Below are positions 1 to 36,620 of a stretch of DNA of 64,000 nucleotides, in pieces. Under the pieces are notes generated by a model. It was not told the origin of the DNA. It was given only the letters and a program-made list of their open reading frames with translations, and did not search any database. This DNA is from Arenicellales bacterium (GTDB lineage Bacteria; Pseudomonadota; Gammaproteobacteria; Arenicellales; Poriferihabitantaceae). The DNA is taken from assembly GCA_965231865.1 (NCBI GenBank), contig CBDDOJ010000001.1, positions 509,359 through 573,358 on the forward strand. Direction: 5' to 3'. The position numbers were made by a program, and so were the translations under genes. Each line of letters opens with the position of its first letter. Position 1 is the first letter of the stretch.

Positions 1-1
1 T

Positions 2-1249: not shown

Positions 1250-1505
1250 CGGCCCATCCGTCAACCACCCATCCTGTCCGCTGGTCCGCACGTTTCGGGG
1301 CACTTGACCGGTTGGGGAAACCGGGGGTGCGTTATTCACCCGGGGCGAGTGCCCCTTGAGAGAAACCGGAAAATATTCGGCAAATCGCCCCAAAGTATCC
1401 GGGTTATATCTCCATATAGGTATTTCCAGGTTTTACTCCAACTCTTGATAATCAACTCTGCTGGAATCAGCCCCATTTTTAACCCCTACATTTTCAGGAA
1501 ACACC

Positions 1506-2675: not shown

Positions 2676-2923
2676 CCGGCGGCTTGGAGCGGCAAAATTC
2701 AGCCGCCACTTTGATGAAGTGACTGTCTCCTGCCAGCAATGATTGTTTCCAACTGGAGGGGAAAGGGGCCCGATAAGGCAATCCCCAGGTAGATTCCACC
2801 AGACACTATCCGCCTGGTACAGGAACAGAACGATACCCGTGCTGGCCCCGGTTTGTTGCCGGGAAATTGGTTCCCGACAGACTTTCATTTCTCATTGCAC
2901 AAACTGATATACTCCAGGCCAGC

Positions 2924-3215: not shown

Positions 3216-3389
3216 ACACAACGTATTCGGACCTTTTCGATGTTACCAATTTGCGTAGATGTTTTTCTGCCGCGAATTCTACTTGCAAGTTTGGGGGCAT
3301 GCGAATGAGGCTGTGAGCAGCATGTTTCTGATAGTGAACAACATGCATTAAATAAGTTTGCTAATAATAAATTTTTGCGTCAACCGGCA

Positions 3390-15649: not shown

Positions 15650-15796
15650 TCAAACTCGGCGATGGGTGGGTAGTACTGAAAAACTGTGAATACCATGCGA
15701 ACGCTACCAATCCAGCCGCCATTCTGTCAAGATTCTTATGAATTTTATTCGGCAGATACAACCTAATGTATAATGCCCCTTTTGATCTGTGCAGCA

Positions 15797-16663
15797 ATGG
15801 TGAAAATCTCTAAAGTCGGTCTTTTCGGAAAATTCAACGACAACAGTGTGGCAGATGCCATTACCGAGGTGAAGAATTTCCTGGAAAGAAAACAGCTGTC
15901 TGTGCTCCTTGGCAATACCACCGCAGACAAGATCCAGGGAGACCGCATAGACAACTACGACGGCCCGCTGGGAGAACTGATTGATCTGGCCATTGTGGTG
16001 GGAGGAGATGGCACCATGTTAAACGCCGCCCGCCTCCTGTCAGATCATGCCATTCCCGCCATCGGTGTGAATCTTGGCCGCCTGGGATTCCTGACCGATA
16101 TCAGTTTACACGAACTGGAACCGAGTTTAACCGCCGTCCTGGAAGGAAAGTGTTACGTGGAACTCAGGACGATGCTGCAATGCCGGGTGCTGGAGGAACG
16201 AAAGGAGATGTTTTCCGGTATTTCCCTGAACGACATCGTGATCTCCAAAGGCAATTCCGGACGTTTGATCGAATTTGAAACCCGCGTCAACCGCCAGTAC
16301 ATTGCCCATACCCGCAGTGATGGACTCATTCTTTCCACCCCGACCGGGTCCACGGCGTATGCCCTGTCCGCAGGGGGGCCCATCATTTCTCCGGGATTGC
16401 CGGTCATCAGCATGGCCCCCATTTGCCCGCATACCCTGAGCAACCGGCCCATCATTCTCAATGAAAACGACGAGGTAGTGATCTCTGCCCTGAAAGTCCG
16501 GGAATCCAACGCCAACCTGATCCTGGATGGTGTCATCAGTTATCACCTGAACGGCAGGGAAACCATCACGGTACAACGGGCACCCAAAAAGTTGCGAATG
16601 ATGCACATGGAAGGGTTCAACTACTTCGAAACTCTTCGCTCAAAACTCGGCTGGACCGGTTGA
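15797..16663 (+). CDS. nadK: NAD kinase
   Basis: GGDGTMLNAAR and the NDIVI...G and TPTGSTAYALSAGGPI motifs are present. I prefer the start at ATG 15797 (MVKISKVGLFGK) because the track start at 15773 lies directly on a TATAAT-like hexamer (15766-15771). Confidence 0.9.
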   Translation: MVKISKVGLFGKFNDNSVADAITEVKNFLERKQLSVLLGNTTADKIQGDRIDNYDGPLGELIDLAIVVGGDGTMLNAARLLSDHAIPAIGVNLGRLGFLTDISLHELEPSLTAVLEGKCYVELRTMLQCRVLEERKEMFSGISLNDIVISKGNSGRLIEFETRVNRQYIAHTRSDGLILSTPTGSTAYALSAGGPIISPGLPVISMAPICPHTLSNRPIILNENDEVVISALKVRESNANLILDGVISYHLNGRETITVQRAPKKLRMMHMEGFNYFETLRSKLGWTG

Positions 16664-16698
16664 GCAGGCCTTCCCAACCCCCTGCGCATACCCCGGAC

Positions 16699-18363
16699 AT
16701 GATTGACTGGCTTGAAATAAGGCAATTTGCCATTGCCGAACACGTTGAACTGGAGTTCGATGACGGTTTTACAACGATTACAGGAGAAACCGGTTCGGGG
16801 AAATCCATCCTGATCGATGCCATCGGGATTCTTCTTGGCCACCGGTCGGATACGAGTTATCTCCGGCACAACCATGACACGGCTGAGATTCAGGCCGGAT
16901 TTTCCCTGACCCCGGGCCATCCCGCTTCAGCGTGGCTGGACGAACAGGGACTGAACAATGAACAGGAGTGCATACTCCGTCGTATTCTCCGCAGAGGAAA
17001 ACCCAGCAGAAATTATATCAATGGTCATGCGGTCACGGTTTCACAGCTCAGGGAGATTGGCCGGGAACTGGTGGATATACACGGCCAGAACAAACATCAT
17101 TCCCTGCTCAGGAAACCCGTGCAGCTCAATCTGGTGGACAGCGCATCCGGAAATGATGCATTGCTGATCGACCTGCAGGAGTGCTACCGGGCCCTGAACG
17201 ACATTGCGGCCCGGATTGACCTGTACCAGGACCAGAGCCAGACCGCCCGGCAACGGGCTGATTTGCTGAAATTCCAGATTGAGGAACTCAATGAACTCTC
17301 CCCCCGGGCCGACGAGTGGCCGGTTCTTGAAAACCGGCACAAAAAGCTGAATCACCTCCAGGAACTGCTCAGTGGCGCCCGGTCCGCCGCCAGTGCCCTG
17401 GTTGAGGATGACCAGGACAACGTGGCATCACGATTGGCACGAACCACCCAGCAGCTCGAAGTGTTGTCCGGATTTGATGACAGCCTGAGGCCCGTGGTAC
17501 AGATGGTGGAAGAAGCCAGGATTCTCGTTGAAGAAGCGGCCAGCCAGCTGAGTCCGGTCTATCAGGACAGCGACGTTGACCCGGATGAAATCGCCGGAAT
17601 AGAGAAGAGAATGTCTCTTTATCATTTCCTGTCCCGAAAACACCGCGTCCATCCCGGAGAATTGTCCGCTCACCTGGACGACATGAAAGAGGAACTGGAG
17701 AGATTGACAGACCCTGAAAGTGAATTGACGCGATTAACGAAGCGGTATCAATCCGAGTCCCGGAAATACAGGGCCATCGCTGACAAGATTACTGCAAATC
17801 GCAAACGAACATCCCGCCATCTCGGCCAGGCGGTTACTTCCATCCTCCAGGAACTGGGCATGGCAGGGGGGAAATTTGAAATTCTCCTGCTGCCCGCCGA
17901 CCCGGACCGTTTTACACGATATGGCAATGAAACAGTGGAATTTGTCGTTTCCACCAACCCGGGGCAACCGCTGCAGCCCCTGCGCAAGGTCGCATCCGGG
18001 GGTGAACTGTCCCGAATGTCCCTGGGCATTCAGGTGGTTCTCGCCAACAAAGCCCGGGTGCCTACACTGATATTCGATGAAGTCGATGTTGGCATCGGCG
18101 GAGAAGTGGCCCATGTCGTAGGGCAAAAGCTGAAGGAACTGGGGAAATCGGCACAGGTGATCTGCATCACGCACCTGTTTCAGATAGCGGCCCGGGGAGA
18201 TTCCCATTTCTGCGTGGTCAAGCAGGGAAACAAACAGGTCGAGACCCAGGTCCGACAACTGTCGGAAGAACAGCGGATCGAAGAAATTGCACGCATGACC
18301 GTCGGTGAAAAAATTACCGCCCAGTCACTGGCACAGGCCAGGGAGATGCTTGAACCATTATGA
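16699..18363 (+). CDS. recN: DNA repair protein RecN
   Basis: I prefer the start at ATG 16699 (MIDWLEIRQFAIAEHVELEF...). Walker A is GETGSGKSILIDAIG, followed by a coiled-coil middle. The C-terminal signature is ASGGELSRMSLGIQV...LIFDEVDVGIGG. Confidence 0.9.
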   Translation: MIDWLEIRQFAIAEHVELEFDDGFTTITGETGSGKSILIDAIGILLGHRSDTSYLRHNHDTAEIQAGFSLTPGHPASAWLDEQGLNNEQECILRRILRRGKPSRNYINGHAVTVSQLREIGRELVDIHGQNKHHSLLRKPVQLNLVDSASGNDALLIDLQECYRALNDIAARIDLYQDQSQTARQRADLLKFQIEELNELSPRADEWPVLENRHKKLNHLQELLSGARSAASALVEDDQDNVASRLARTTQQLEVLSGFDDSLRPVVQMVEEARILVEEAASQLSPVYQDSDVDPDEIAGIEKRMSLYHFLSRKHRVHPGELSAHLDDMKEELERLTDPESELTRLTKRYQSESRKYRAIADKITANRKRTSRHLGQAVTSILQELGMAGGKFEILLLPADPDRFTRYGNETVEFVVSTNPGQPLQPLRKVASGGELSRMSLGIQVVLANKARVPTLIFDEVDVGIGGEVAHVVGQKLKELGKSAQVICITHLFQIAARGDSHFCVVKQGNKQVETQVRQLSEEQRIEEIARMTVGEKITAQSLAQAREMLEPL

Positions 18364-21565: not shown

Positions 21566-22558
21566 TCAGGAATTAATGGTCAGGCCCACTGAATGTGCTT
21601 CCGCCCGTTTGCTGGCAAACGCTGCCACCGCGGTATCCTGCACACCGGTACCGGTCAGGTCGCAAATGGTGATTTCTTCTGGAGTCTGCCGTCCCGGGGC
21701 ACTGCCGGCAACGATATCCCCCAGTTCCGGATACACGGTTTTTTTATTTACGGTTCCGGATTCAATGGCATGGTGAAGCTCCCCCAGTTTTTCGGTTTGT
21801 GACTGCCGGTCGGGCACATAAATATCTGTCCTCGACAGGCACCCGGGATCCAGCTCGTTCTTGTGCGCCTGATCAGAACCCATCGCGGTAATGTGCTGGC
21901 CGGGCCGCAACCAGTCACTCATTACCAGCGGGGTTGCGGAAGGGGTGGTGGTGACGACCACCTGGGAGAGGACAACCGCCTCCTCCAGGTCAGGGGCCGC
22001 TTTCACGGTAATCCCCAGTTTTTCTGACAGTTCACGGGCGGCCGCTTCCGCTTTTGGAAAATCTCTCGCCCAGATCCTTGCCAACCGGATTCGACGGACC
22101 AGGCACAGGGCTTCAAGCTGCAGGCGGGATTGCTGGCCGGCTCCAAGGATACACGCCTGCTCCACATCGGCTGGAGCAAGATGGCCCGCGGCCACCGCCC
22201 CCGCAGCCGCTGTACGCACGTCCGTCAGATAACCGTTGTCCAGCAAAACGGCCTGCAGCATCCCGGTACGGACCGAAAACAGCACCATCAGGCCCGTCGT
22301 GCTTGGCAGGCCCTGTTTCGGGTTGTCGAAAAATCCCGGGGATATTTTGATTGCAAAGCTGTCGAATCCCGGGACATAGGCGGTTTTTACATCCACTTCA
22401 CCGTTGAATTCCCGGATGGCCATGGAAAGAATGGGGGGCATGACCACCTTGCCCCCTGACAGCGCGGCAAAAGCCGATTCAATACAGTGAATCGTCTCCC
22501 CATCCAGGCGGACAATTTTACGGAGTTCCTTTTCGGTCAGAATCTTTAATCCGGGCAT
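21566..22558 (-). CDS. eutC: Ornithine cyclodeaminase / mu-crystallin family (EutC-like)
   Basis: 330 aa with a Rossmann motif ILGAGQQSRLQLEAL. Its position between eutB-like and doeA-like genes supports the call. Confidence 0.75.
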   Translation of the reverse strand: MPGLKILTEKELRKIVRLDGETIHCIESAFAALSGGKVVMPPILSMAIREFNGEVDVKTAYVPGFDSFAIKISPGFFDNPKQGLPSTTGLMVLFSVRTGMLQAVLLDNGYLTDVRTAAAGAVAAGHLAPADVEQACILGAGQQSRLQLEALCLVRRIRLARIWARDFPKAEAAARELSEKLGITVKAAPDLEEAVVLSQVVVTTTPSATPLVMSDWLRPGQHITAMGSDQAHKNELDPGCLSRTDIYVPDRQSQTEKLGELHHAIESGTVNKKTVYPELGDIVAGSAPGRQTPEEITICDLTGTGVQDTAVAAFASKRAEAHSVGLTINS

Positions 22559-22566
22559 GGGTAAAT

Positions 22567-23574
22567 TCAGGCTTCTGGAAAATCAATGTTTTCACCGGAG
22601 ATGATCCGATGGTGTAGGTTCATATCTATATTCCCGCCACTGGTGAGCACAGCCACCGGAGCATGACTCTTTATTTTACCGGAAAGCAGGGCTGCAATGC
22701 CCACGGAACCGGAACCCTCCAGAATCTGTCGTTCTGACCAATAGGCGTGGCGGATCGCTTCGGCAATCTCGCCCTCGGAAACCACAATCAACTCATCAAC
22801 CAGCTTTTGTACAATTGAAAACGTCAACCGGTTGTCCAGACCGATGCCTCCTCCCAGGGAATCCGCAATGGTCGGCAGTTCCTCAACTTCCACGGGGTGT
22901 CCGGATCGGATGCTCTCATACATAGCGGCTCCACGTTCCATGGAGACACCGATCACCCGGATCTCCGGTTGTGCGGCTTTCAGCGCAATGGCCATCCCGG
23001 AAATCAATCCTCCACCCGATACCGGAACCAGCACAGTCCGGAATTGCGAATTCTGCCCCAACAGTTCCAGTCCAAGAGTGCCCTGCCCCGTGATAATGTC
23101 AAAATGGTCAAACGGCGGGAGCACCGTCATGTGCTCCTCCCTGACCAGGCGGTCCACCTCCACCTGGGCCTCATCCTGGGAATCTCCCACGATGCGCACT
23201 TCGGCACCCTGCAATGCAATGCCGTCTATCTTGTTCTGCGGCACGAGGCTCGACATACAGATTATGCAGCGAATGCCTGCCTGACGTGCGGCATAGGCCA
23301 GCCCACGACCATGATTGCCCGTTGATACGCCAACAACCCCCCGGGCCCGTTGCTCCCTGGAGAGATTCAACACGGCATGGGTCGCACCGCGCAACTTGAA
23401 ACTCCCGGTAGTCTGGTGGTGTTCAAGCTTGAGAAATACCGGCACGCCGGATAACTCGCCAAGGGTCTGAGAGGGCACAACCGGAGTCGTCAGAACCCTG
23501 GGGGCAATCTGGCGCCTTGCCCGCCGGATGTCTACAATGGTCGGCCAGTCCGGCCTCAATGCTTTCTGGTTCAC
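22567..23574 (-). CDS. eutB: Threonine-dehydratase-like PLP enzyme (EutB-like)
   Basis: The PLP lysine context LEHHQTTGSFKLRGA and the glycine-rich loop GVSTGNHG are present. Confidence 0.75.
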   Translation of the reverse strand: MNQKALRPDWPTIVDIRRARRQIAPRVLTTPVVPSQTLGELSGVPVFLKLEHHQTTGSFKLRGATHAVLNLSREQRARGVVGVSTGNHGRGLAYAARQAGIRCIICMSSLVPQNKIDGIALQGAEVRIVGDSQDEAQVEVDRLVREEHMTVLPPFDHFDIITGQGTLGLELLGQNSQFRTVLVPVSGGGLISGMAIALKAAQPEIRVIGVSMERGAAMYESIRSGHPVEVEELPTIADSLGGGIGLDNRLTFSIVQKLVDELIVVSEGEIAEAIRHAYWSERQILEGSGSVGIAALLSGKIKSHAPVAVLTSGGNIDMNLHHRIISGENIDFPEA

Positions 23575-23583
23575 TGTGCTGGA

Positions 23584-24483
23584 TCAGGCTGAATGGCCGG
23601 GTTTTTCATCCTGTTGATGATCAAATATTGAGGTATATCCTTCCGACCAGTCCGGGGGAAGAGGAACCATCATTTCTTCATGGTGCGCAAATTCGGATTG
23701 CACACCGCGTACGAGACGGCCATAGTTTACACTGGGATAGGCAGGTGGAGTATACGGAATCGCGTCTGCGGCACTGTAGGTGACGACAAACGCCGGCCTC
23801 CCCAGTGCACTCATATTGCGGGCAGATCCATGGATGGTGCGGCTGTGGTGAACGGAAAGGGAACCCGGCGGACCCAGCATGGACACTGCCTTGTCCAGCG
23901 CAACCTCCCCCAGGTCCTGATCGGAAATGGCACCCGTCCAGTTTCCCCGGGTGTCGTAGTGCGAAAATATCGGCCCCTGATGGCTCTTTGGAATCACCTG
24001 CAGCGGGCCCTGCCCAGGCCCGGTGGCCTCCAGCATCAGCAGAAACTGCATCGTACCGGCATGGGTGTGGGGATAAAACACAATATCCTGATGCCATTTG
24101 ACTTCCGCTCCCCCACCGGCCCATTTGAAATTCATCATCAGTTCCCGGAACCTGACATTGGGACCCAGCAAGTCCGCTGCAATGTCGGGAATGATGGATT
24201 TCGAACACAGGTCCCAGAATACCGGGGCAAATTCATCCAGATAGGCAATCCGCCGCAACCGGGGATTTTCGGAACTGTGGTCCCGTTCAATGTCCACCTT
24301 CCGGGTGGACTGCCTGCAGTCCCTTGTCTGCTCGACAACCTCCGCCAGGGCACTTCGAAGCGGACCGAGCCATTCATCGCCAATCAGTCCGGGAAATGCG
24401 AGATATCCCTGCCGGTAATAGAATTTTCTTTGTTCCCGGGTCAAAATGGATGGCGGGCGGGACAGGATACTGTCGAGTTTCAT
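23584..24483 (-). CDS. Phytanoyl-CoA dioxygenase (PhyH) family Fe(II)/2-oxoglutarate oxygenase
   Basis: 299 aa. The facial-triad context is WHQD...(H) with a distal HHSRTIHGSARN. The ATG overlaps the eutA-like stop as ATGA (24480-24483). Confidence 0.72.
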   Translation of the reverse strand: MKLDSILSRPPSILTREQRKFYYRQGYLAFPGLIGDEWLGPLRSALAEVVEQTRDCRQSTRKVDIERDHSSENPRLRRIAYLDEFAPVFWDLCSKSIIPDIAADLLGPNVRFRELMMNFKWAGGGAEVKWHQDIVFYPHTHAGTMQFLLMLEATGPGQGPLQVIPKSHQGPIFSHYDTRGNWTGAISDQDLGEVALDKAVSMLGPPGSLSVHHSRTIHGSARNMSALGRPAFVVTYSAADAIPYTPPAYPSVNYGRLVRGVQSEFAHHEEMMVPLPPDWSEGYTSIFDHQQDEKPGHSA

Positions 24484-26400: not shown

Positions 26401-28974
26401 ATGGCAAGAAAACAAAAAAAGTCCGTGGAACAGTATGCGCACACGGAGAAGAAGCGGATCAATAACCCACCGGTGGGTCTGGTCACACCACAAACCGACC
26501 CTGATCACGGCACCAGAAAGGAATACGAGTACGACCCGCATCTTGACCCGAAACTGCAGTGGACCGGCAAGGCCGAACAGTCATGTTTTAATGTGCCGAC
26601 CGTAAGTCTGCATGTCCATGAGCGTATTGATCCGAAAACCATCCTTGAAGCCGTCAGGAAAGTGCTTGGAGACCGCCGTCAGGAAAGCCTTTTTGACAAT
26701 CACAAGCCCCTTCGTGAAGCCGTTGAGTTCTACAAACACAAGGATAACTGGAGCAATCGGTTCATTGCCGGTGACAGCTTGCTGGTAATGAACTCTCTAC
26801 TGGAAAAGGAAGCCATGGCCGGCAAAGTGCAAATGGTTTACTTTGATCCGCCTTATGGCATCAAGTATGGCAGCAATTTCCAACCATTCGTCAATCAGAA
26901 CCAGGTCAAGGACGGTAAGGATGAAGACCTGTCTGGTGAACCGGAGATGATCAAGGCTTTTCGGGATACCTGGGAACTGGGAATTCACTCCTACCTGTCC
27001 CACCTGCGTGACCGCCTGCTCCTGGTTCGGGAGCTACTGGATGAAAGCGGCAGTGTATTGGTGCAGATAGGCGATGAGAATGTACATCGTGTGAGCATGA
27101 TACTGGATGAGGTTTTCGGAGCAGGGAATCGACTGGCAACCATAAGCTTTGCGACCACCAGTGGAAGTTCCACGGCATATCTGCCCCAAGTCGCGGATTA
27201 CCTGCTCTGGTATGTGAAAGATACTAATAAAGCTAAGTATCGGCAGCTGTACGAACCCCTCACCCGTACCGAAACTATCGATTACTTTAGTTCATATGTC
27301 ATGGTTGAGCTTGCCGATGGCAGTTGTCGCAAATTAACCGGTGAAGAACGGTTTGACCCGGACCGGTATCTGCCGGAAGGTGCACGAATTTATCAACGTA
27401 CCGGGTTGGATTCTCAAGGGGTTTCTACGACTGGCCGCTCTGAACCTTACGAATATGACGGCAGAACCTTTCGTTGCTCGAAAAACCGGCACTGGTCCAT
27501 TTCAAAAGAAGGGATGGACCGACTGGCTGAACAGGGACGGCTTGAAGCCTTGAGCGGGCAAAGCTCATTGAGGTGGAAAAAATACGAAGATGAAGTGCCT
27601 GGTCGACGCATTCATAATATCTGGCCAGCACAGATGTACCCCAGCAAGAAGAAGTACGTGGTTGAAACCGCGACCAAGGCGATACAACGGTGTATCCTCA
27701 TGACCACTGATCCGGGAGACCTGGTCCTCGATATTACCTGCGGCAGTGGCGCCACCGCTTTTGTGGCCGAGCAATGGGGACGACGCTGGATAACCTGCGA
27801 TACCTCCCGCGTGGCGCTGGCGCTGGCCCGGCAACGGTTAATGACCGCCAGTTTTGAGTATTACCAATTGGCACACCCGGATGAGGGGATCGGCAGTGGC
27901 CTGAAATACAAAACCGTATCCAAAGTATCGCCCAGTATTTTAGCCGGTGATCAACAGGACGCAGAGGTCCTGTATGACCAGCCTTTCGTGGAAAAGGGCA
28001 AGGCACGCATTACCGGCCCTTTTACGGTGGAAGCGGTCCCCGCCCCCTATGTAAAAAGCATGGATGAGATGGACAACCAAGCAGAGCAGGAGAACGCAGC
28101 CGATTTGACCATCGCCCGGACAGGTGAAACCGTGCGCCAAAGCGACCTGCGCGATGAACTGCTACACTGTGGCGTACGTGCCAAAAACGGCCAGCAAATC
28201 ATGTTCAGCCGGGTCGAGGTTCTGTCCGGAACAAGATACCTGCAGGCAGAAGCCGAAACCCGACCGGCCAGCCCTGACAGCAACCCTGTCAGGGAAATCC
28301 CGGTCACGGCGAATACGCCTCTGCGGACCGTGATTTCCTTTGGCCCGGAACACGCACCGCTGGAACCCCGCCAGGTTGAGCTGGCACTGGACGAAGCCGG
28401 AAGACTGCGTCCCAAACCCCAGATCATACTGTTCGCCGCCTTTCAGTTTGACCCGGAAGCGGCCAAGGATATTGATGAAACCAACTGGCCCGGGGTTACC
28501 CTGCTCAAGGTGCAAATGAACGCCGACCTGCAGACCGGCGACCTGAAAAGGAAACGTGCCAGCAACGAAAGTTTCTGGTTGGTGGGTCAGCCTGATGTGA
28601 ATCTGTATCCAATCCATCGGGGTGAAGCCACCGGGAAATGGCAGGTCGAGGTCAGGGGATTCGACTACTTTAACACCAGGACCGGTAAAGTCGAATCCGG
28701 TGGTGAAAATGAAATCGCAGTGTGGATGCTTGATACCGACTACGATGGACGTAGCCTGTACCCAAAGCAGGTGTTTTTTCCAATGGCCGGTCCGAAAGAT
28801 GGCTGGGACACCCTGGCCCGCAACCTCAAAGCAGAAATCGATGAAGAGATGATTGAGGCCTATCGGGGGAACCTGTCCCTGCCCTTTGAACTGGGTGACA
28901 ATAAACGCATCGCCGTTAAAATCGTAGATAACCGGGGCATTGAAAGTTTACGAGTGGTCGATCGATATAAATAA
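26401..28974 (+). CDS. mod: Type III-like DNA methyltransferase (beta-class N6-A/N4-C MTase, 857 aa, long C-terminal extension)
   Basis: Motif IV (VYFDPPYGIKYGSNF, aa ~150) comes before motif I (LVLDITCGSGATAFVAEQWGRRWITCDTS, aa ~440). That order defines the beta class used by Type III Mod proteins. Confidence 0.85.
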   Translation: MARKQKKSVEQYAHTEKKRINNPPVGLVTPQTDPDHGTRKEYEYDPHLDPKLQWTGKAEQSCFNVPTVSLHVHERIDPKTILEAVRKVLGDRRQESLFDNHKPLREAVEFYKHKDNWSNRFIAGDSLLVMNSLLEKEAMAGKVQMVYFDPPYGIKYGSNFQPFVNQNQVKDGKDEDLSGEPEMIKAFRDTWELGIHSYLSHLRDRLLLVRELLDESGSVLVQIGDENVHRVSMILDEVFGAGNRLATISFATTSGSSTAYLPQVADYLLWYVKDTNKAKYRQLYEPLTRTETIDYFSSYVMVELADGSCRKLTGEERFDPDRYLPEGARIYQRTGLDSQGVSTTGRSEPYEYDGRTFRCSKNRHWSISKEGMDRLAEQGRLEALSGQSSLRWKKYEDEVPGRRIHNIWPAQMYPSKKKYVVETATKAIQRCILMTTDPGDLVLDITCGSGATAFVAEQWGRRWITCDTSRVALALARQRLMTASFEYYQLAHPDEGIGSGLKYKTVSKVSPSILAGDQQDAEVLYDQPFVEKGKARITGPFTVEAVPAPYVKSMDEMDNQAEQENAADLTIARTGETVRQSDLRDELLHCGVRAKNGQQIMFSRVEVLSGTRYLQAEAETRPASPDSNPVREIPVTANTPLRTVISFGPEHAPLEPRQVELALDEAGRLRPKPQIILFAAFQFDPEAAKDIDETNWPGVTLLKVQMNADLQTGDLKRKRASNESFWLVGQPDVNLYPIHRGEATGKWQVEVRGFDYFNTRTGKVESGGENEIAVWMLDTDYDGRSLYPKQVFFPMAGPKDGWDTLARNLKAEIDEEMIEAYRGNLSLPFELGDNKRIAVKIVDNRGIESLRVVDRYK

Positions 28975-28987
28975 ACGGGGGAAGACT

Positions 28988-30244
28988 GTGATCAAGCAAC
29001 TGCAACTTCGCAATTTCAGAATTTTTGATGAGGAGGTGACCATCCGGTTTCGTCCAATCACCTTGTTGATTGGGAAAAACAATGCCGGAAAGTCCTCAAT
29101 CATCCAGTTCTTGTTGATGTTGCAGCAGTCGATTGGGTTAAACAGCAAGGCATTTCTGGACTCAAGAGGCGAGAAAGTCGATCTGGGTACATTTTACGGG
29201 CTGAAAAACAGTAATTCCCTCAAACGTTTCCTGGATTTTTCTTTGCATGTGCAGGAGAACAGCAGTCCAAGGAGTCAACTGGGAGCCTATCTGCAAGAAA
29301 AGGGTATCAAATTTTATGAGCACCCTCTCGAATACCAGATCGCCGCCAAGATCTTATACAACAAGCAGAACCTTTTCCAAGGCAAAGATTGGAAGCTCAC
29401 ATTGTTGTCCAACCATCAAACCATTTTGCAACGTCCCACCCCGATTACTGAAAACAGCCAGTTCCTGCAGACTAGTGGAGAATATTCAGTGGAATCTTCA
29501 GACTCAAATCCTGAAGAAATCAGGGAAAACCAGGCAGAACAATGCTGCCTGGAGTCAATCGCGCAGACAATCAGAACAATGGAACATATTGGACCGAACA
29601 GAAGGATGATGCCAAGAACCATCGATACCGGTGAAAACATACCCTCTCATCATGTCGGGAGAAGCGGAGAATATGCACTGCATCACTTATGGAAACTGTC
29701 GAAAAACCACCACGGTCGGTCTGAATTGATTTACCCTCATTTGAAAAAAATTGTGGATATCCAGAATATTACTTTTTCAGAGAAGGGAGATTTAGCCCAA
29801 TGCGAGGCACAGAATGTGAAAACACGGGCACGTACCAATATTGCGAATTTTGGCTTCGGTACCAGTGAGAGCCTGCCAATTATAGTACAAGGCGCAATGA
29901 TGGCCCCCAGAACTACTCTCCTGGTAGAACAGCCGGAAGCCCAGATTCATCCCTCAGCCCAGCTGGAACTGGGCAGTTTCTTTGTTGATTTATGGAAACA
30001 GCGCAAGGTCCATTCCATCATAGAAACACACAGTGCCAATATCCTGTTGAGGTTGCAAAGATCCATTGCAAGAGGGGATTTGAATGCGGATGACGTGTCT
30101 GTCGTGTTTTTTGATGTCGAGAATGAAAAATCGGTCGTGAACAATTTGGAAATCAATGAAGATGGTTCCATAGAAGACGGATTACCCATGGAATTTTTTC
30201 ATCAGGATATCTGGGAAGCCATGGACCTGGAGGTTGGAGAGTGA
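28988..30244 (+). CDS. ABC/AAA-type ATPase with DUF3696-like C-terminus
   Basis: I prefer the GTG start at 28988 after a GGGGGA RBS, 13 nt past the mod stop. Walker A is LLIGKNNAGKSS, Walker B/D-loop is LLVEQPEAQIHP and the H-loop is ETHS. The C-terminal tail ...DVSVVFFDVENEKSVVNNLEINEDGSIEDGLPMEFF resembles DUF3696. Confidence 0.8.
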   Translation: MIKQLQLRNFRIFDEEVTIRFRPITLLIGKNNAGKSSIIQFLLMLQQSIGLNSKAFLDSRGEKVDLGTFYGLKNSNSLKRFLDFSLHVQENSSPRSQLGAYLQEKGIKFYEHPLEYQIAAKILYNKQNLFQGKDWKLTLLSNHQTILQRPTPITENSQFLQTSGEYSVESSDSNPEEIRENQAEQCCLESIAQTIRTMEHIGPNRRMMPRTIDTGENIPSHHVGRSGEYALHHLWKLSKNHHGRSELIYPHLKKIVDIQNITFSEKGDLAQCEAQNVKTRARTNIANFGFGTSESLPIIVQGAMMAPRTTLLVEQPEAQIHPSAQLELGSFFVDLWKQRKVHSIIETHSANILLRLQRSIARGDLNADDVSVVFFDVENEKSVVNNLEINEDGSIEDGLPMEFFHQDIWEAMDLEVGE

Positions 30245-30774
30245 ATGGGCTGACATGTGACTACATTGCGATTGATACAAATGTTTTTCTCCATCTGACC
30301 AATGAAAAATTTAATTCGGATAGACATATACACAAACTATTACAGGTGCCGAAAGAAGGAGAGAACAAGATACATCTTCTGGTCGATACCAACGGGGAAA
30401 TTTTTTCTGAATACGGTCGCCATTTGTTGAAAGAAGAGTTTCTTCAATCCCGACAACGCAAAAATGAAGCCCAGATCATAAAGTATTGGTTGAGATTTGC
30501 GCCCAGAAAACCGATTTCAGTCCATAAAACCGACCAACTGTGGTCTGCAATTTTCAGTATTATCCCGGAGGCCAAGGAAGAGGTTGACAGAATATTTGTT
30601 TATGTGGCCTTCCAAACAGGACGCATATTGATCAGCAATGATCGCAAACACATTGTAAGCCGTCGAGGCCAACTGAAATCATGCTACAGGAATGGTTTCT
30701 GTAGCAACGGTGCAGATGTGATGGATTCCCAAGAGGCCTACAACCGAATCCAGAACACCGGGACTTCCAATTAA
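30241..30774 (+). CDS. PIN-like domain protein (putative nuclease), 177 aa
   Basis: GTG start overlaps the ATPase stop as GTGA (30241-30244). Acidic positions follow PIN-like spacing: IAIDTNVF (N-terminus), EEVDRIFVYVA and LISNDRKHI. The assignment rests on motif spacing only. Confidence 0.45.
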   Translation: MNGLTCDYIAIDTNVFLHLTNEKFNSDRHIHKLLQVPKEGENKIHLLVDTNGEIFSEYGRHLLKEEFLQSRQRKNEAQIIKYWLRFAPRKPISVHKTDQLWSAIFSIIPEAKEEVDRIFVYVAFQTGRILISNDRKHIVSRRGQLKSCYRNGFCSNGADVMDSQEAYNRIQNTGTSN

Positions 30775-30862: not shown

Positions 30863-31609
30863 ATGGGAACAGTGAAGATTACGCTGAATTATCGGTCAAC
30901 GAACACAGAAAGCGGCCTGATCAGCGCGGACTTTCTCTACCACCAGGCAGGACTGGATCCAGAAAGCAGTCAATGGCTCTATCTGAACAGGGACCACGAT
31001 GTCGACATCCCGCTCCTGCCGAATGACCACCTCATCATCCGTGGTGGAGAGATCATCTTTGCAGATGAGGCCAGCTTTGATATTGGCGAAAACCCCAGGA
31101 TCAAAAACCCCATTTGTTTTCAGTTCAATGACAAGCGGATGGAAGCGGATAAAGCCAAGTTGACTGGCCATAAACTTCGAAAACTGGATACGAAACTTGA
31201 TGCCAGCAAGCTGTTTGCCGATTTGAGCGGGCAGGCAGATGCCTTGGTCCAGGATGACTGGGTATTGGTGGTGCAGGAAAAGGACTGCTATTTTACCATT
31301 CCCGCAGGGAATGACGAAACAATTGACATTGAAGAATGCGCGCGAGCAGACCGAAGACCACCCAAAGGCCAAAAGTGGTACAAGATCAAAATCGATGGTG
31401 ACAAGTATAAGGTGGACCAGTCATCATTGACTGGTCAAGAGATACTTGGGCTAGTGCAAAAAAATTATCAGGAATGGACGTTGAATCAAAAATTGTATGG
31501 CGGCCGACGCAAACCGATTGAGGAAGAACAGACGGTAGATTTTTCACAACCGGGCATTGAGCGATTTGAGACAGTACAAAAACAAGCTCAACAGGGCACT
31601 TGCTTGTAA
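30863..31609 (+). CDS. Multi-ubiquitin (tandem beta-grasp/Ubl) protein, 248 aa
   Basis: An AGGGGG RBS lies 10 nt upstream. Three internally similar ~70-80-aa segments are visible, for example ...KLTGHKLRKLD... and ...SLTGQEILGLV... with ...ISADFLYHQAGLDP... The last segment (KWYKIKIDGDKYKVDQSSLTGQEILGLV) fits the Multiubiquitin family pattern. The C-terminus is ...QQG-TCL. Confidence 0.7.
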   Translation: MGTVKITLNYRSTNTESGLISADFLYHQAGLDPESSQWLYLNRDHDVDIPLLPNDHLIIRGGEIIFADEASFDIGENPRIKNPICFQFNDKRMEADKAKLTGHKLRKLDTKLDASKLFADLSGQADALVQDDWVLVVQEKDCYFTIPAGNDETIDIEECARADRRPPKGQKWYKIKIDGDKYKVDQSSLTGQEILGLVQKNYQEWTLNQKLYGGRRKPIEEEQTVDFSQPGIERFETVQKQAQQGTCL

Positions 31610-31986
31610 TGATTCTTCCTGATGAAGATACGGATTTTCTCAATGCTCAGTATAATTCCCGATGGGAAGAATTGTCGGAGGGAAATACCCACGGCCTGTT
31701 GATCAGGGACTACCCACTGCCTGAAGGGTATACCCCGAAGAATTCCAGTTTAATGTTGCTGATTCCAGACAGCTATCCGGGTGCAATGATTGACATGTTC
31801 TATTTTGACCCGCCGGTCCAGAGGGAGGACGGGGCCGAAATTGAAAGATTATTAGATGAAATTCACTTTGGCCGACAATGGCAAAGATGGTCGAGGCATT
31901 ATGACTGGCGACCCGGAATCGACAACATGTCAACACACATCACCTATGTATCCAATCAACTCAGGTCTGAGATCAATAACGGATAG
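31609..31986 (+). CDS. Prokaryotic E2/UBC-like protein (family-E-like), cysteine-free, 125 aa
   Basis: The ATG at 31609 overlaps the Ubl stop (TAATG). The pattern LPEGY...LMLLIPDSYPGAMIDMFYFDPPV...WQRWSRH fits the prokaryotic E2 family found next to multi-ubiquitin and JAB-E1 genes (from memory). No Cys is present. Confidence 0.65.
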   Translation: MILPDEDTDFLNAQYNSRWEELSEGNTHGLLIRDYPLPEGYTPKNSSLMLLIPDSYPGAMIDMFYFDPPVQREDGAEIERLLDEIHFGRQWQRWSRHYDWRPGIDNMSTHITYVSNQLRSEINNG

Positions 31987-31995
31987 TCCCATTCT

Positions 31996-33396
31996 GTGAA
32001 TCACTCACTGGTACTTTCAGAAAGTCAGCATCAGAGACTCTCTGAACATCTTCATCCCGGGGATGGCCTTGAATCCGCTGCCATTATTCTCTGCCATCAT
32101 GGTCGGGGGGGAGAAGGTCAACTGCGGTTAATCGCCAATGATTTCATCCTGATTCCCGCGGATGCCTGTGAGAAGAGGACAGCCACCAGATTGATCTGGC
32201 CTTTTGCTGATTACCTTCCGCCAGACAAAATCACCGAAATCGACCAGAACGGCTTGTCTGTCATGACCATTCACAGTCATCCAGGTGGCATGGACCGATT
32301 TTCACGGGTCGACAATTCAAACGACAAGTCCCTGTTTCATTCAGTATGCAACTGGTTTGATGACGACAGGCCAAATGGGTCAGCAATCATACTGCCAGAC
32401 GGGAAAATCGTCGCCCGTCTGGTGACAGTGGATGGCCGGTTTATCCCTATACACAGTGTAACGGCAGTGGGCGAAAATATCCGAATCTGGAAACAGTCAA
32501 GGAAAAGCCCGGCTTCGTTGCCTGCGGGATTGCGCGTTGCCCAGACCTTTGGCAAGGGAACTTTCGATCTGCTGCGCAATTTGCGCGTGGGGGTGGTCGG
32601 TTGTTCGGGCACCGGGAGCATTGTCAGTGAACTGCTCGCACGCAACTGCATTGGCACACTGATTCTGGCAGACCCGGATTACGTTGAAGAAAAAAACCTC
32701 AACCGTATACTCAATGCCACGAAAACCGATGCTAAAAACAAGACTCCCAAAGCATCAATGCTTAAACGGGCGATTGCAAAAATGGGCACAGGCGTACAGG
32801 TTGAAGCGTATCAGACACATACCTCCGACAAGGCTCTTATCGAAGTGCTGATAAGTTGCGATGTGATATTCGGGTGTGTTGACTCAGCCGAAGGCAGATA
32901 CCATATTGAATGTATTGCCTCAGCCTACTGGTTGCCGTATTTTGATGTTGGCGTCAATCTTGAAGCCAACTTGGAAGGAAGGATTTTGCAGGCCGATGCT
33001 GTTGCCCACTATATGCACCCGGAAACCACCAGTCTGATGTCTCGTGGCGGCTACACCAGCAATCAGGTTACCGCTGAAACCTGGTATCGCACCGACAGAA
33101 AATACTATGAAACACAAAGAGACGCCGGGTATCTGGCAGCAGTGGGAGAGGACCAGCCAGCCGTTATGTCAGTGAATATGCAGGCAGCGTGCATGGCCTT
33201 TAATGATTTTCTGGCTCGGCTGCATGGATTTCGTCTTGATTGCAATGATGATTTTACGACACAGCGTTTCAGACTGGTACATGGGCATTACAGCCATGCT
33301 GCATCAGAAGAGCAGGCACCCTCTGTTTTTGATCCGTACAGTGGTATGGGAGACCACAGTTTTTTGATTCGAAAGCTAAAACATGATGTTGACTGA
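31996..33396 (+). CDS. JAB/JAMM metalloprotease fused to a ThiF/MoeB-type E1 adenylyltransferase (466 aa)
   Basis: GTG start. The JAMM motif is intact: E (GLESAAI) and HSHPGGMDRFSRVD, which equals H-x-H-x7-S-x2-D. The E1 Rossmann loop is VGVVGCSGTGSIVSELLARNCIGTLILADPDYVEEKNLNRI. Confidence 0.85.
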   Translation: MNHSLVLSESQHQRLSEHLHPGDGLESAAIILCHHGRGGEGQLRLIANDFILIPADACEKRTATRLIWPFADYLPPDKITEIDQNGLSVMTIHSHPGGMDRFSRVDNSNDKSLFHSVCNWFDDDRPNGSAIILPDGKIVARLVTVDGRFIPIHSVTAVGENIRIWKQSRKSPASLPAGLRVAQTFGKGTFDLLRNLRVGVVGCSGTGSIVSELLARNCIGTLILADPDYVEEKNLNRILNATKTDAKNKTPKASMLKRAIAKMGTGVQVEAYQTHTSDKALIEVLISCDVIFGCVDSAEGRYHIECIASAYWLPYFDVGVNLEANLEGRILQADAVAHYMHPETTSLMSRGGYTSNQVTAETWYRTDRKYYETQRDAGYLAAVGEDQPAVMSVNMQAACMAFNDFLARLHGFRLDCNDDFTTQRFRLVHGHYSHAASEEQAPSVFDPYSGMGDHSFLIRKLKHDVD

Positions 33397-33748
33397 ACTG
33401 GTCAACTTTCGGGAAAGATGGCGAAAATATCGAACTCGCTGGGTCGCTGATTTGCCGGAAAAGCCTGAACGGAACACCGCTTATGTGATTGGCGGGCGCA
33501 AGTACCCGTACTATGCTGCAATCACCTGCCCACGAAAAAAGTGCAGAATTATTGTTCACCTTGAAGTTTCTGCGGAGTTCAAAAAAAGATGGAAGCTGAT
33601 TGAACACGATGATGGAAGCATTTCACTGTCACCGTCCATACGTGTTACCAAAGCTCCGTGTCGCTGCCACTATTTTCTCAAGAAAGGAAAAATAACCTGG
33701 GCAGAACCCCCTGTGTTCTTTGTTCCAGCGGAAAACCGTCGATCCTGA
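33383..33748 (+). CDS. DUF6527-like small Cys-rich protein (121 aa)
   Basis: The start overlaps the E1 3' end by 14 nt. Cys pairs are CPRKKC and PCRCH. The C-terminal pattern SLSPSI...C.CHYFLKKGKITW recalls DUF6527. Confidence 0.58.
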   Translation: MMLTELVNFRERWRKYRTRWVADLPEKPERNTAYVIGGRKYPYYAAITCPRKKCRIIVHLEVSAEFKKRWKLIEHDDGSISLSPSIRVTKAPCRCHYFLKKGKITWAEPPVFFVPAENRRS

Positions 33749-33779
33749 CAGCAACCGACTTGTCCTGTTCCGATATACA

Positions 33780-36620
33780 ATGAATCAAACTATCCCCAAA
33801 CTCATTATCAATAGCCCTTATACAGAACCGGAAAAACATTGGTTGTACGATCGGGAAACCCGTGAGTTTCGAATAAAAAACACTCGCCGGCCGGCCGGTT
33901 ATATTCAGGCAACACCCGATTCCCGTGCGTTTGATGACCCTGGCATACCGATTGAAATAGAACTTGTCAATAAAATACGGTCCAGAGTAAAGGCATGGAG
34001 GCAGTCCGGCTATATCGGCGTTACCGGTACCACAAGACGGTTGCTGGAACACTGGCATGACGAACAGGAACGACGGGACAACCGATTTTTCTTTTGCCAG
34101 ATAGAAGCGATAGAAACACTGATCTGGTTGACCGAAGCCCCCGCGGCCGATAGAACGGGAATTACGATTGAGGGCGATGGCGGCCAGTTTGAACGTTGGT
34201 GCAGCAAAATGGCCACCGGCTCAGGCAAGACGGTTATCATGGCCATGCTGATTGCCTGGAATTTCTTGAATAAAATCACCAACTCTGCAGACCCTCGCTT
34301 TAGCAGGAATACGCTGGTGGTAGCGCCAGGCCTAACGGTAAGAAGCCGTCTGCAGGTTTTGTTGCCCGCACATCCTGAAAACTATTATGAAGCGTTCAAT
34401 ATCGTACCAACATCCCTCATGGACAAGTTACGTCAGGGCAAGGTGTTGGTCCGGAACTGGCATGAACTGGCATGGGACACACAGGAAAAACTGGATGCGA
34501 AGGTAAAACGGGGATACTTGCGCTCGGTAGACAAGCGAAAACGTACCGAAATCAGTGCTGAGGTGTATGCCCAACAAGTACTGGGGGAAATGGCAAATGC
34601 TCGCAATATCCTCGTGATCAACGATGAAGCACATCATGCCTGGCGAATCAATCCGCAAGCCACCAACAAGTATACACGGACGGGTTCAACCAAAGACAGC
34701 GCCGAAGAAGCCACCGTATGGGTCGGTGGCCTGGATAGAATTCATGCACAAAGAGGTATTCTGCACTGCTACGATCTTTCTGCCACTCCATTCTCGCCGT
34801 CAGGAAAAAAATCAGCAGAAGAAACTTTATTCAACTGGATTGTGTCTGACTTTGGGCTGAATGACGCCATTGAATCAGGCTTGGTGAAAACGCCCCGGGT
34901 AGTAGTTCGGGATGACAGTCATGTTCAAAGCAAAGAACTGAAATCCAGGCTTTATCATATTTATGCTGATGAAGAGGTCAGGGATGATATTAACCGCAAA
35001 GCGAAAGAAACGGACCCACTCCCTGACCTGTTGCTGAACGCCTATTACCTTCTGGGTCAGGATTGGAAACAGACTCGAAATAAATGGCTTGAGCAAGGAC
35101 ACCCTGTGCCGCCCGTGATGATCACGGTTGCCAACAGAATTGAAACCTCGGCGCGTATCAAGCATGCGTTTGATCACAAGAAAATACTTATCTCCGAGTT
35201 GTGTGATCCAGACAAAACCCTGCAAATCGACAGTAAAGTGCTCCATGAAGCCGAATCTGAAACCGAACCAATGTATATTGGTAGCACCAGCGGTGACGGT
35301 CGCGTGAAAGCCAAGCCCAAGTTGACTAAAAAAGAACAAGCTGAACAGTTGCGTCAAATGGTGGATACAGTGGGACGGGTCGGCGAACTGGGCGAACAGA
35401 TTCACAACATCATTTCTGTAGGCATGCTTTCCGAAGGATGGGATGCCAGGACAGTGACCCATATCATGGGAATCAGAGCATTTTCCAGTCAGTTGTTGTG
35501 TGAACAGGTGGTTGGACGAGGCCTGCGAAGGATCAGTTATGACATGAATGATGAAGGGTTATTTGAACCTGAATACGTCAATATATTCGGCGTTCCCTTT
35601 ACATTTTTACCCCATGAAGGCAATGGGTCGGTACCCGCACCGCCCTTGCCGAAAACCAGAATTGAGCCGGTAAGAGCAAAACTGGCCCACGAAATCGTCT
35701 GGCCCAATATCCTTCGTATTGATCATCAATACCAGTCACGACTTACTCTGGACTGGGATAAAGTCCAGCCACTGGAAATTGACCCTCTCGACTACATTAC
35801 CCAGGCACAGTTGACTGCCATCGTTGATGGCAAACCGAACGACAAAGTGTACGCAGGGATTACCCTGAAGGAAAATACCAGACTGCAAACAGTGGTGTTT
35901 CATGTCGCATCCACGATTTACAACCACGAAAAACCACAGTGGAAAGGCAACAAAGAGTCCTTTCTTATCCAGATTGTCAGGCTGACTGAACAGTTCCTCA
36001 ACTCAGAAAAAATTGTTACCAAGAATGGTTTTCCGCATCCCAATGAAGCTAAAAGAAGGATACTGCTCATCCTCAACATGAATAAAATCATTCAGCACAT
36101 CTGGTCAGCGATACGATCGAAAAACACCGAGAAACTGGTCCCTGTGTTTGACAAAGAAAAACCAATCAAATCAACTTCGGATATGAGGCCCTGGTTTACC
36201 AGCAAACCCTGCGAGAAGCTTGAAAAATCTCATATCAGCCATTGCGTGTATGACAGCGGTTGGGAAGGAACGGAAGCCAACTTCATGGAAAAATCCAAGT
36301 TGGTTGCGTCTTTTGCCAAGAACGACCATTTGGGATTTTCTGTTTTGTATAATTACAATGGCGTTGTTCGAAAATACTACCCGGATTTTCTGATAAGACT
36401 GGCCAATGGCGACTACATGGTACTTGAAGTCAAGGGTCAGGATAATCAGAAGAATCAGACTAAGCGAGAATACTTAAATAAATGGATAAAAGCTGTAAAT
36501 GGACAGGGAGGCTTTGGTCAATGGCATTTTATCGTTTCATTTCATCCATCAGACCTGGAAAGCAAAATACGGAACTGCATGGCACATTCATCGGCACCTG
36601 TCGTAAATGGTGCAGATTAA
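33780..36620 (+). CDS. res: Type III-like restriction subunit: SF2 DEAH helicase with C-terminal PD-(D/E)xK nuclease
   Basis: I prefer the start at ATG 33780 (MNQTIPKLIINSPY...). Walker A is MATGSGKT and motif II is NDEAHHAW. The C-terminal nuclease motif is YYPDFLIRLANGDYMVLEVKGQ. Confidence 0.85.
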   Translation: MNQTIPKLIINSPYTEPEKHWLYDRETREFRIKNTRRPAGYIQATPDSRAFDDPGIPIEIELVNKIRSRVKAWRQSGYIGVTGTTRRLLEHWHDEQERRDNRFFFCQIEAIETLIWLTEAPAADRTGITIEGDGGQFERWCSKMATGSGKTVIMAMLIAWNFLNKITNSADPRFSRNTLVVAPGLTVRSRLQVLLPAHPENYYEAFNIVPTSLMDKLRQGKVLVRNWHELAWDTQEKLDAKVKRGYLRSVDKRKRTEISAEVYAQQVLGEMANARNILVINDEAHHAWRINPQATNKYTRTGSTKDSAEEATVWVGGLDRIHAQRGILHCYDLSATPFSPSGKKSAEETLFNWIVSDFGLNDAIESGLVKTPRVVVRDDSHVQSKELKSRLYHIYADEEVRDDINRKAKETDPLPDLLLNAYYLLGQDWKQTRNKWLEQGHPVPPVMITVANRIETSARIKHAFDHKKILISELCDPDKTLQIDSKVLHEAESETEPMYIGSTSGDGRVKAKPKLTKKEQAEQLRQMVDTVGRVGELGEQIHNIISVGMLSEGWDARTVTHIMGIRAFSSQLLCEQVVGRGLRRISYDMNDEGLFEPEYVNIFGVPFTFLPHEGNGSVPAPPLPKTRIEPVRAKLAHEIVWPNILRIDHQYQSRLTLDWDKVQPLEIDPLDYITQAQLTAIVDGKPNDKVYAGITLKENTRLQTVVFHVASTIYNHEKPQWKGNKESFLIQIVRLTEQFLNSEKIVTKNGFPHPNEAKRRILLILNMNKIIQHIWSAIRSKNTEKLVPVFDKEKPIKSTSDMRPWFTSKPCEKLEKSHISHCVYDSGWEGTEANFMEKSKLVASFAKNDHLGFSVLYNYNGVVRKYYPDFLIRLANGDYMVLEVKGQDNQKNQTKREYLNKWIKAVNGQGGFGQWHFIVSFHPSDLESKIRNCMAHSSAPVVNGAD

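Follow-up and report, generated by a model that had tools for sequence, protein, structure and literature searches.

A DUF3696-tailed ABC ATPase coupled to a small PIN-domain protein: a candidate HEC-03-like defence pair nested in a Type III-like restriction operon of an Arenicellales bacterium

The window analysed here is a stretch of 64,000 nucleotides (nt) from an Arenicellales bacterium (assembly GCA_965231865.1, contig CBDDOJ010000001.1, positions 509,359 to 573,358), in which two overlapping genes on the + strand lie between the methyltransferase and restriction genes of a Type III-like restriction-modification system. The first gene (28988..30244) encodes an ABC ATPase of 418 amino acids (aa) that belongs to the NsnB / HEC-03 type and ends in a DUF3696-like tail, as judged by Pfam, PADLOC, BLASTP and AlphaFold/Foldseek, and the second (30241..30774) encodes a predicted single-domain PIN nuclease of 177 aa that is presumed to be the effector, as judged by AlphaFold, Foldseek and residue conservation. 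The pair belongs to the HEC-03 / NsnB-type ATPase-PIN class as a divergent member that has no model of its own, and it likely acts, with a probability of roughly 65%, as a self-contained ATPase-plus-nuclease defence module of the same class as HEC-03 and the NsnBC part of Menshen, because the ATPase is homologous to that of the tested HEC-03, the PIN protein has the expected fold and acidic tetrad, the two genes are strictly coupled and there are loci where the pair stands alone. A preliminary description of this DNA had proposed that the two genes make up a defence-type module within a restriction-modification operon, here that of the methyltransferase (Mod) and restriction (Res) genes, and this is supported by the family, fold, residue and synteny evidence set out below. 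It had not recognised the pairing as a named system, a point that needs correction, as HEC-03 is a direct precedent (10.1101/2024.01.29.577857) and NsnB-NsnC of Menshen is related (PMC12065111).

The linkage of the two genes is apparent from their distribution. When 185,579 species-representative genomes were scanned for the pattern, 31 loci emerged. Most of them belong to Dehalococcoidia and other Chloroflexota, with further carriers among Caldilineaceae, Candidatus Oxydemutatoraceae, Nitrospirales, Gammaproteobacteria, Bdellovibrionales/Oligoflexia and Latescibacterota metagenome-assembled genomes (MAGs), and in every one of the 31 an ATPase homologue is immediately upstream of the PIN homologue. 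Within the window the stop codon of the ATPase and the start codon of the PIN gene share the four nucleotides GTGA (30241..30244), an arrangement that points to translational coupling, and the same 4-nt overlap is found in 22 of the 31 loci. The two genes and their linkage are far beyond chance: ATPase homologues reach E<1e-90, PIN homologues go down to 1e-90 and the synteny holds in 31/31 loci. The gene boundaries and the overlap had been given correctly in the preliminary description, and the two outcomes it had named as fatal to its proposal, a second protein that is not PIN-like and a pair that never co-occurs elsewhere, are both rejected by this synteny and by the fold match described below.

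Homologues of Mod lie upstream of the ATPase in most of these loci (23 of the 31), with 22 of the genes complete and that of L024 represented by its 3' end only, at a contig edge. The order Mod-ATPase-PIN-Res is found in about 16 loci, whilst six complete loci (L004, L005, L013, L015, L020 and L027) have Mod-ATPase-PIN-Bub-Res, where Bub is the bacterial ubiquitination-like operon discussed further below. Two loci from Bdellovibrionales (L023 and L026) have ATPase-PIN-Bub without restriction genes, and on two truncated contigs (L024 and L031) the pair is followed by the first Bub genes and then by the end of the contig. In six loci the pair is alone amid unrelated genes (L008, L012, L016, L019, L021 and L007, the last with a Mod fragment upstream); flanks were scanned with Pfam in L008, L012, L016, L021, L023 and L026. 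Sampling from the ATPase side gave three loci with Mod and a partner of ~170 aa, together with two orphan ATPases. The arrangement is also found on plasmid3 of Planktothrix agardhii NIES-204, where Mod is followed by a hypothetical protein that is the ATPase, a hypothetical protein of 232 aa and Res, with the 232-aa protein matched to the PIN family by hhalign at 99.6%, and this strain provides a cultured source of the pair, under accessions BBD57174 and BBD57173.

The ATPase is taken to start at the GTG at 28988, giving 418 aa (28988-30244), because family alignments start at the residue this codon encodes, and a Shine-Dalgarno-like run GGGGGAAG lies ahead of it. It had been described as an SMC/RecF-like ATPase and this is borne out, with a match to Pfam AAA_15 at 1.7e-23 and a top match in the defence libraries to PADLOC NsnB of Menshen at 1.4e-52, followed by PDC-M55A (7.3e-48) and HEC-03B (4.3e-38), the HEC-03B match falling in two stretches. 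Weaker PADLOC matches are those to AriA (2.7e-25) and to GajA/Old, the latter limited to the P-loop region, and no PrrC or RloC model was among the 25 best PADLOC matches listed, out of 106. Conservation was counted over 61 homologues and an AlphaFold model was built on the same number. The model, with a predicted local distance difference test (pLDDT) of 88.5 and a predicted TM-score (pTM) of 0.89, has a terminal helix at 401-413, and its Foldseek neighbours in the PDB are the retron Eco8 effector, Rad50, PtuA of Septu and retrons, and SMC heads, at E of about 1e-11 to 1e-9. When the PDB was searched with the ATPase by sequence only, the sole match was to the P-loop of an OLD nuclease.

The motifs named in the preliminary description are all located. 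Walker A (GKNNAGKS, residues 29-36, 29072..29095) has G29, N31, G34, K35 and S36 invariant, and the H-loop ETHS (residues 346-349, 30023..30034) is invariant in 61/61. The stretch FGFGTSESLP (29849..29878) has a GFG variant where the ABC signature would be expected, with G291 invariant and G289 found in 58/61 homologues. The Walker B and D-loop stretch LLVEQPEAQIHP (residues 311-322, 29918..29953), in which the EQPE..HP motif is found, has E314 in 59/61, Q315 in 54/61 and both P316 and E317 in 61/61 homologues. The region reads hhhh-E314-Q315-P316-E317 and thus carries EQ instead of the canonical DE dyad. In ABC ATPases a change of the catalytic glutamate to glutamine permits ATP-dependent engagement and slows hydrolysis. 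As EQ replaces DE in its Walker B, the ATPase may be a switch more than a motor.

At its C-terminus the ATPase has a DUF3696-like tail (30077..30229) made up of strands and then a terminal helix, with a conserved GLPxEFF motif in which F403 and F404 are invariant. The earlier claim of such a tail is borne out in part. DUF3696 is the top Pfam match for the isolated tail, which is true of 5/5 tails (the window and four homologues, E 1.5e-4 to 0.1). It is not reported at E<=0.01 when the full-length ATPase is the Pfam query, and the last 90 aa of the window ATPase, searched by themselves, reach E 0.0016 and 19.1 bits, under the 22-bit cut-off. One of the four homologue tails passes that cut-off and more distant plasmid homologues of the ATPase carry a DUF3696 annotation. 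The tail is real, though its match is weak.

The 177-aa protein has a VapC-like PIN fold, a three-layer alpha/beta/alpha arrangement, in its AlphaFold model (pLDDT 84.3, pTM 0.84). The best 12 Foldseek matches of this model in the PDB are all VapC-type or related PIN-domain proteins, with probability ~1.0 and E of 9e-4 to 6.5e-3, and the nearest solved folds are Shigella VapC (5ecw), Pyrobaculum PAE2754, FitB and M. tuberculosis VapC11. The acidic residues that had been thought to be spaced like those of a PIN nuclease are conserved, with D12, D49, E57, D116 and D134 invariant in 35/35 PIN homologues, and in the alignment the protein retains the full acidic tetrad at the canonical positions (D12, E57, D116 and D134, with codons starting at 30274, 30409, 30586 and 30640). 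D116 and D134 are 18 residues apart, a spacing that we take to agree with VapC-type PINs. Also invariant in the family, outside the canonical acidic site, are H18, N25, H29, Y121 and S163, for which binding of metal, of substrate or of the ATPase tail are possibilities.

A profile search of 1.84 billion representative proteins with the PIN family returned just 263 clusters, and the family is rare on this account. Among the best 150 of the 263 clusters almost all members are single-domain proteins of 105-200 aa, with three of 204-249 aa. These lengths leave no room for an added effector domain, so the PIN protein is itself the only candidate effector of the pair. The PIN profile searched against the PDB by sequence alone gave nothing meaningful, the best match (E 0.17) being to a helical region of PtuA, and an hhalign comparison of the PIN family with a single sequence, a VapC-type PIN from Thermus, was not significant.

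The closest precedent for the pair is HEC-03 (Hma-embedded candidate 03), an ABC ATPase with a VapC-like PIN that was described by Payne et al. (bioRxiv 10.1101/2024.01.29.577857) among cassettes of an ABC ATPase and an effector embedded in Hma systems. HEC-03 was found to cut phage plaquing in Escherichia coli with both genes needed, and it was plated without isopropyl beta-D-thiogalactopyranoside (IPTG) owing to apparent toxicity (10.1101/2024.01.29.577857). The tested system is that of Pseudomonas cichorii ATCC 10857 (WP_025259138 and WP_025259137), in which a DUF3696 domain-containing protein (322707-324092) is overlapped by the gene for a 157-aa protein (324079-324552; supplement, 10.1101/2024.01.29.577857). 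The gene order is therefore the same as in the window, with a DUF3696-type ABC ATPase (461 vs 418 aa) and then a small VapC-like PIN protein (157 vs 177 aa), the two genes overlap in both, and in both the pair is nested in a multi-gene defence system. BLASTP aligns the window ATPase with WP_025259138 over its full length (24% identity, E 7e-20), and the two share the EQPE..HP, GFGxS..LP and E[ST]HS motifs, HEC-03 having GFGVSQVLP aligned at the signature and MEQPEIHLHP at Walker B.

There are also differences between the two. The identity of the ATPases is only 24%, the host system of HEC-03 is Hma whereas that of the window is a Type III-like restriction system, and HEC-03 has been shown experimentally whilst the window family is known from sequence and models. 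The PADLOC model of the HEC-03 PIN (HEC-03A) is matched by 4/35 members of the PIN family, with a best E of 2.4e-5, and leaves the window protein unmatched; as the window PIN escapes this model, PADLOC would not call the locus HEC-03. Type III systems lay outside the survey of Payne et al., which covered Hma, BREX, DISARM and Type I restriction systems (10.1101/2024.01.29.577857), and the window extends such 'guilt by embedding' to Type III-like restriction systems. In the literature 'BPTD_3080' and 'PDC-M55' were not found in main texts, PDC-M55 being present only as the code of a three-family cassette in a supplement. For annotation, a rare stand-alone PIN family that Pfam, NCBIfam and PADLOC miss can now be given a dedicated ATPase and labelled as part of a HEC-03-like defence pair.

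A second related system is Menshen, consisting of NsnA-NsnB-NsnC (Li et al., NAR 2025, PMC12065111). The ABC ATPase NsnB bears a DUF3696 helix, reads EN at Walker B and has GxG in place of the SGG signature, and NsnC has an inactive PIN-like (inPIN) N-terminal domain joined to a C-terminal toxin, with all the Menshen PIN-like domains bound by NsnB reported as catalytically dead (PMC12065111). In AlphaFold 3 predictions paired NsnB DUF3696 tails surround the PIN-like domain of NsnC in 23/24 systems (PMC12065111). Like Menshen, the window pair has an ABC ATPase that carries a DUF3696 tail, departs from the canonical Walker B (EN in NsnB, EQ in the window) and has a GxG-type signature, and the partner encoded immediately downstream has a PIN fold. 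It differs in that Menshen has NsnA (ParB-DUF262 + ParBDB) upstream where the window has an N6_N4 methyltransferase, in that NsnC has a C-terminal toxin whilst the window partner is a single domain of 177 aa, and in that the window PIN retains the D-E-D-D residues, which are gone from every Menshen inPIN family. No DUF262 protein is found in the window operon, nor adjacent to the pair in the related loci with scanned flanks. Membership of Menshen was considered and rejected, as there is no NsnA and no effector fusion; by analogy we infer that the pair resembles NsnB-NsnC at the interface of the two proteins. A PIN that appears from its residues to be catalytically intact, and that is presumably bound by the DUF3696 tail, may offer a simpler model than Menshen for NsnB-type control of a PIN-fold partner.

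It can be envisaged how such a defence module would work. The ATPase would oligomerise, by analogy with the predicted NsnB tetramer and with GajA, PtuA and AriA, and its C-terminal DUF3696 tails would hold the PIN protein so that the nuclease is kept inactive. An asymmetric arrangement of ATPase dimer and effector is known from PARIS, Septu and Gabija and has been invoked for NsnB-NsnC (PMC12065111). A cue from infection might then alter the ATP-bound state, with the EQ Walker B serving as an ATP-binding switch of slow hydrolysis, and the PIN protein would be released or activated to cut RNA (tRNA, rRNA or mRNA, as VapC-type PINs do). Cleavage of RNA could lead to arrest of the cell or of the phage, by abortive infection or growth arrest, and the location inside a restriction operon may bring joint expression and a second barrier to phages that get past restriction.

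Several observations weigh against this account, and they concern the fold, the relationship to HEC-03 and the independence of the pair. The Foldseek TM-scores of the PIN model to VapC are modest (0.4-0.6), the Pfam PIN family (PF01850) scores the window protein below its gathering threshold (19.8 vs 23.6 bits, E 0.0013), only 3/35 PIN homologues match any PIN Pfam family at E<0.01, and the window protein matches no PADLOC model, even at E<=10, and no NCBIfam model. Alignment of the PIN family with the HEC-03 PIN by hhalign is weak, with a probability of 10.7% and E 0.003, the D49/E57 and D116 motifs being aligned. Two ATPase homologues that are about 46-47% identical (L034, 8001-9251, and L045, 6001-7242) have no PIN gene downstream. 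The pairwise identities of ATPase, PIN, Mod and Res correlate within carriers (Spearman 0.47-0.79), a correlation that would also fit a closer functional link with the restriction system. For this family, moreover, the ATPase-PIN complex, the nuclease activity with its substrate, and the trigger all stand as predictions.

The tie to the restriction system deserves closer attention, as the host of the pair is a BPTD_3080-family Type III-like restriction-modification system, an assignment based on the sequences of its two subunits. Mod is a Type III-like DNA methyltransferase of 857 aa (26401..28974, +), with Pfam N6_N4_Mtase at 2.7e-28 and PADLOC MTase_III at 2.4e-153, and is the upstream host gene of the operon, outside the ATPase-PIN pair. 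Res, the Type III-like restriction subunit (33720..36620, +), reaches 1104 bits against the 800-bit cut-off of NCBIfam NF046055, the BPTD_3080 family. The closest relatives of both Mod and Res are from Gammaproteobacteria MAGs. The Res family comprises at least 7982 proteins at E<1e-100, and many systems do without the pair. Mod and Res are adjacent with no insert in Pricia sp. S334 (Res 71% identical), in a Bacteroidales contig (70%) and in Rhizobium etli, with Res 47-71% identical over such insert-free systems as a whole. A Res that is 74% identical sits in the full eight-gene arrangement and more distant Res proteins (52-59% identical) carry the pair. Of the plasmid records with this Res family, 39/40 lack the ATPase, and in Thermus brockianus a DUF3800 gene takes the same mod/res slot. 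Within carriers the ATPase and PIN proteins evolve faster, with mean identities of 47% and 42%, than Mod (64%) and Res (61%). It follows that the pair is an accessory cassette, which clearly favours this mod/res junction and has been gained or lost repeatedly, given that close Res systems lack it, that plasmid records lack the ATPase and that the pair is found alone.

A guard of the restriction system is the leading alternative, though we regard it as considerably less probable than an independent module. In the manner of PrrC or PARIS, the ATPase would sense inhibition of Mod/Res or a phage anti-restriction protein and unleash the PIN as an RNase for abortive back-up. The pair sits in the mod/res junction of one restriction family in 23/31 loci, in Chloroflexota, Gammaproteobacteria, Nitrospirales and Latescibacterota, as well as on the Planktothrix plasmid, and the insertion has been gained or kept repeatedly though close restriction systems lack it. 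ATPase and Res diverge in step (Spearman 0.79), which could be explained by shared ancestry alone. There is a precedent in PrrC, which is almost exclusively embedded in Type I restriction systems (Payne et al., 10.1101/2024.01.29.577857). Set against this, the pair is also found without Mod or Res nearby, and HEC-03 functions in E. coli without its host system. PrrC/RloC and PARIS (AriA-AriB) are like the window in having an ABC-type ATPase that controls an RNA-directed nuclease; PrrC and RloC, however, are single polypeptides with another nuclease domain in Type I systems, whereas the window has two proteins, a PIN effector and a Type III-like host, and the AriB effector of PARIS is a Toprim nuclease rather than a PIN. 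The window pair is accordingly not a member of PrrC/RloC, having separate ATPase and PIN proteins and a Type III-like host. A broader form of the idea, for which the odds are similarly low, is that Mod-ATPase-PIN-Bub-Res works as an immune island built in layers, with the pair functionally tied to its neighbours, either as a guard of restriction or by acting with the Bub conjugation machinery; if true, the function-less Bub pathway would gain a defence context and a candidate partner.

Addiction of a toxin-antitoxin kind is less probable still, and would have the PIN as a VapC-type toxin and the ATPase as the antitoxin or neutraliser, stabilising an acquired restriction island rather than sensing phage. 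The PIN fold is nearest to VapC toxins, with which it has the acidic tetrad and the residue spacing in common, the coupling of the two genes is tight, and HEC-03 has an apparent toxicity, as seen in its plating without IPTG. The base composition can be read in the same sense, with a G+C content (GC) of 0.43-0.50 over about 29-37 kb (ATPase-PIN-Bub-Res), 0.50-0.55 in Mod and 0.54-0.59 in the metabolic flanks, a drop that fits horizontal acquisition and suggests that the nested cassettes and Res have a history differing from that of the surrounding chromosome. In four MAG loci the PIN homologue looks disrupted: it lies in two separate frames in L026 and L031, is cut short in L029 and in L030 is broken up by a stretch of about 1.6-1.8 kb. 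This could be real inactivation of a toxic gene or an assembly error. The regulator gene comes first and the toxin second, however, and the partner is a 418-aa ABC ATPase where VapBC would have a VapB-like DNA-binding antitoxin, of which there is no gene here. The window PIN is also about 45 residues longer than VapC, with extra helices, and lies below the Pfam PIN threshold. The nearest characterised relative, HEC-03, gives phage defence, and the family is almost confined to defence contexts.

Two further alternatives are improbable. The PIN could be an inactive adaptor like the Menshen inPIN, linking the ATPase to a nearby effector such as Res or the Bub cassette; NsnB is the top PADLOC match of the ATPase, the PIN-like domains it binds are all reported dead, and the additional invariant residues H18, N25, H29, Y121 and S163 lie outside the canonical PIN site. 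The invariance of D12, E57, D116 and D134 in 35/35 homologues would be unexpected in a dead enzyme, however, there is no second domain in the protein or its family members, and most loci have the pair with no Bub and several have it with no Res, all of which makes an adaptor very unlikely. Least credible of all is an enlarged Type III restriction enzyme to which the ATPase and PIN would belong as built-in subunits, for instance a DNA-end sensor and an extra DNA nuclease, for despite a position on the same strand 13 nt after Mod, the conserved four-gene order Mod-ATPase-PIN-Res in many loci and the correlated divergence, Res proteins 70-71% identical directly follow Mod in Pricia sp. and Bacteroidales whilst the pair accompanies those 52-59% identical, the ATPase is missing from 39/40 plasmid records, other genes such as DUF3800 in Thermus brockianus occupy the slot and the pair is found alone. 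An obligate or constituent role as a restriction subunit is rejected by this distribution of insert-free mod/res systems and stand-alone pairs, and a self-contained defence module is the reading that is preferred.

The genes around the pair form a co-oriented string on the + strand that runs from Mod through the ATPase, the 177-aa open reading frame and a four-gene ubiquitination-like cassette to Res. The TAA stop of Mod (28972-28974) is separated from the ATPase by a gap of 13 nt. The start of Res is probably the ATG at 33780, giving 946 aa, because an identical database protein (P0301) has 946 aa; the mechanically called frame begins at a TTG at 33720 and overlaps the BubE gene. A promoter and terminator scan of 25.5-37.5 kb gave the same counts as shuffled controls and was uninformative.

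The Bub operon (30863..33748, +), which went unmentioned in the preliminary description, was identified by Pfam and follows the nomenclature of 10.1101/2024.11.21.623966. It consists of a separate Multi_ubiq ubiquitin-like protein (Ubl) of 248 aa (30863-31609), Prok-E2_E (31600-31986), a JAB-E1 fusion of Prok-JAB and ThiF (31996-33396) and DUF6527, now called BubE (33383-33748). The CapH/CapP or CapW regulators described in other Bub operons are missing from it. The Bub cassette directly follows the PIN gene in 10/31 loci and is also present in L032/L033, L042 and L044, so that it is spread over several phyla. The two Bub preprints make no mention of restriction, methyltransferase, PIN or ATPase, and neither the co-nesting of an ATPase-PIN pair with a Bub operon nor a recurrent home of such pairs in the BPTD_3080-family mod/res junction was found described in the literature. 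A metagenome scan with the JAB-E1 protein gave just three short contigs. The co-nesting with the pair provides a testable route to the function of Bub.

The mod/res junction behaves as a slot for cargo (L036, L037, L041, L043 and L044), and is empty in Rhizobium etli, Pricia sp. and the Bacteroidales contig. The BPTD_3080-family junction can take varied cargo, namely the pair, the pair with a Bub operon, further ATPase cassettes or DUF3800. In L044 it holds the ATPase-PIN pair, Bub genes and a further AAA_15/AAA_21 ATPase (387 aa) with a 198-aa protein. A second and different adjacency of Bub and an ABC ATPase is seen in L038, where a Type I Bub operon (1-5926), comprising a Ubl-E2 fusion, JAB-E1 and BubE with divergent HTH_3 and Peptidase_M78 (CapH/CapP-like) genes, is directly followed by a 584-aa AAA_21/AAA_15 ABC ATPase.

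The orphan ATPase of L034 is flanked by OCD_Mu_crystall and PhyH genes, like the left flank of the window (21566-24483), and may be a decayed remnant at a similar site. L007 has another DUF3696 ATPase (403 aa, DUF3696 at 52 bits), which lies downstream of its ATPase-PIN pair at a distance of about 4 kb and is followed by a 316-aa protein with no Pfam match (14623-16785), and these two genes may be a Menshen-like NsnB/NsnC pair.

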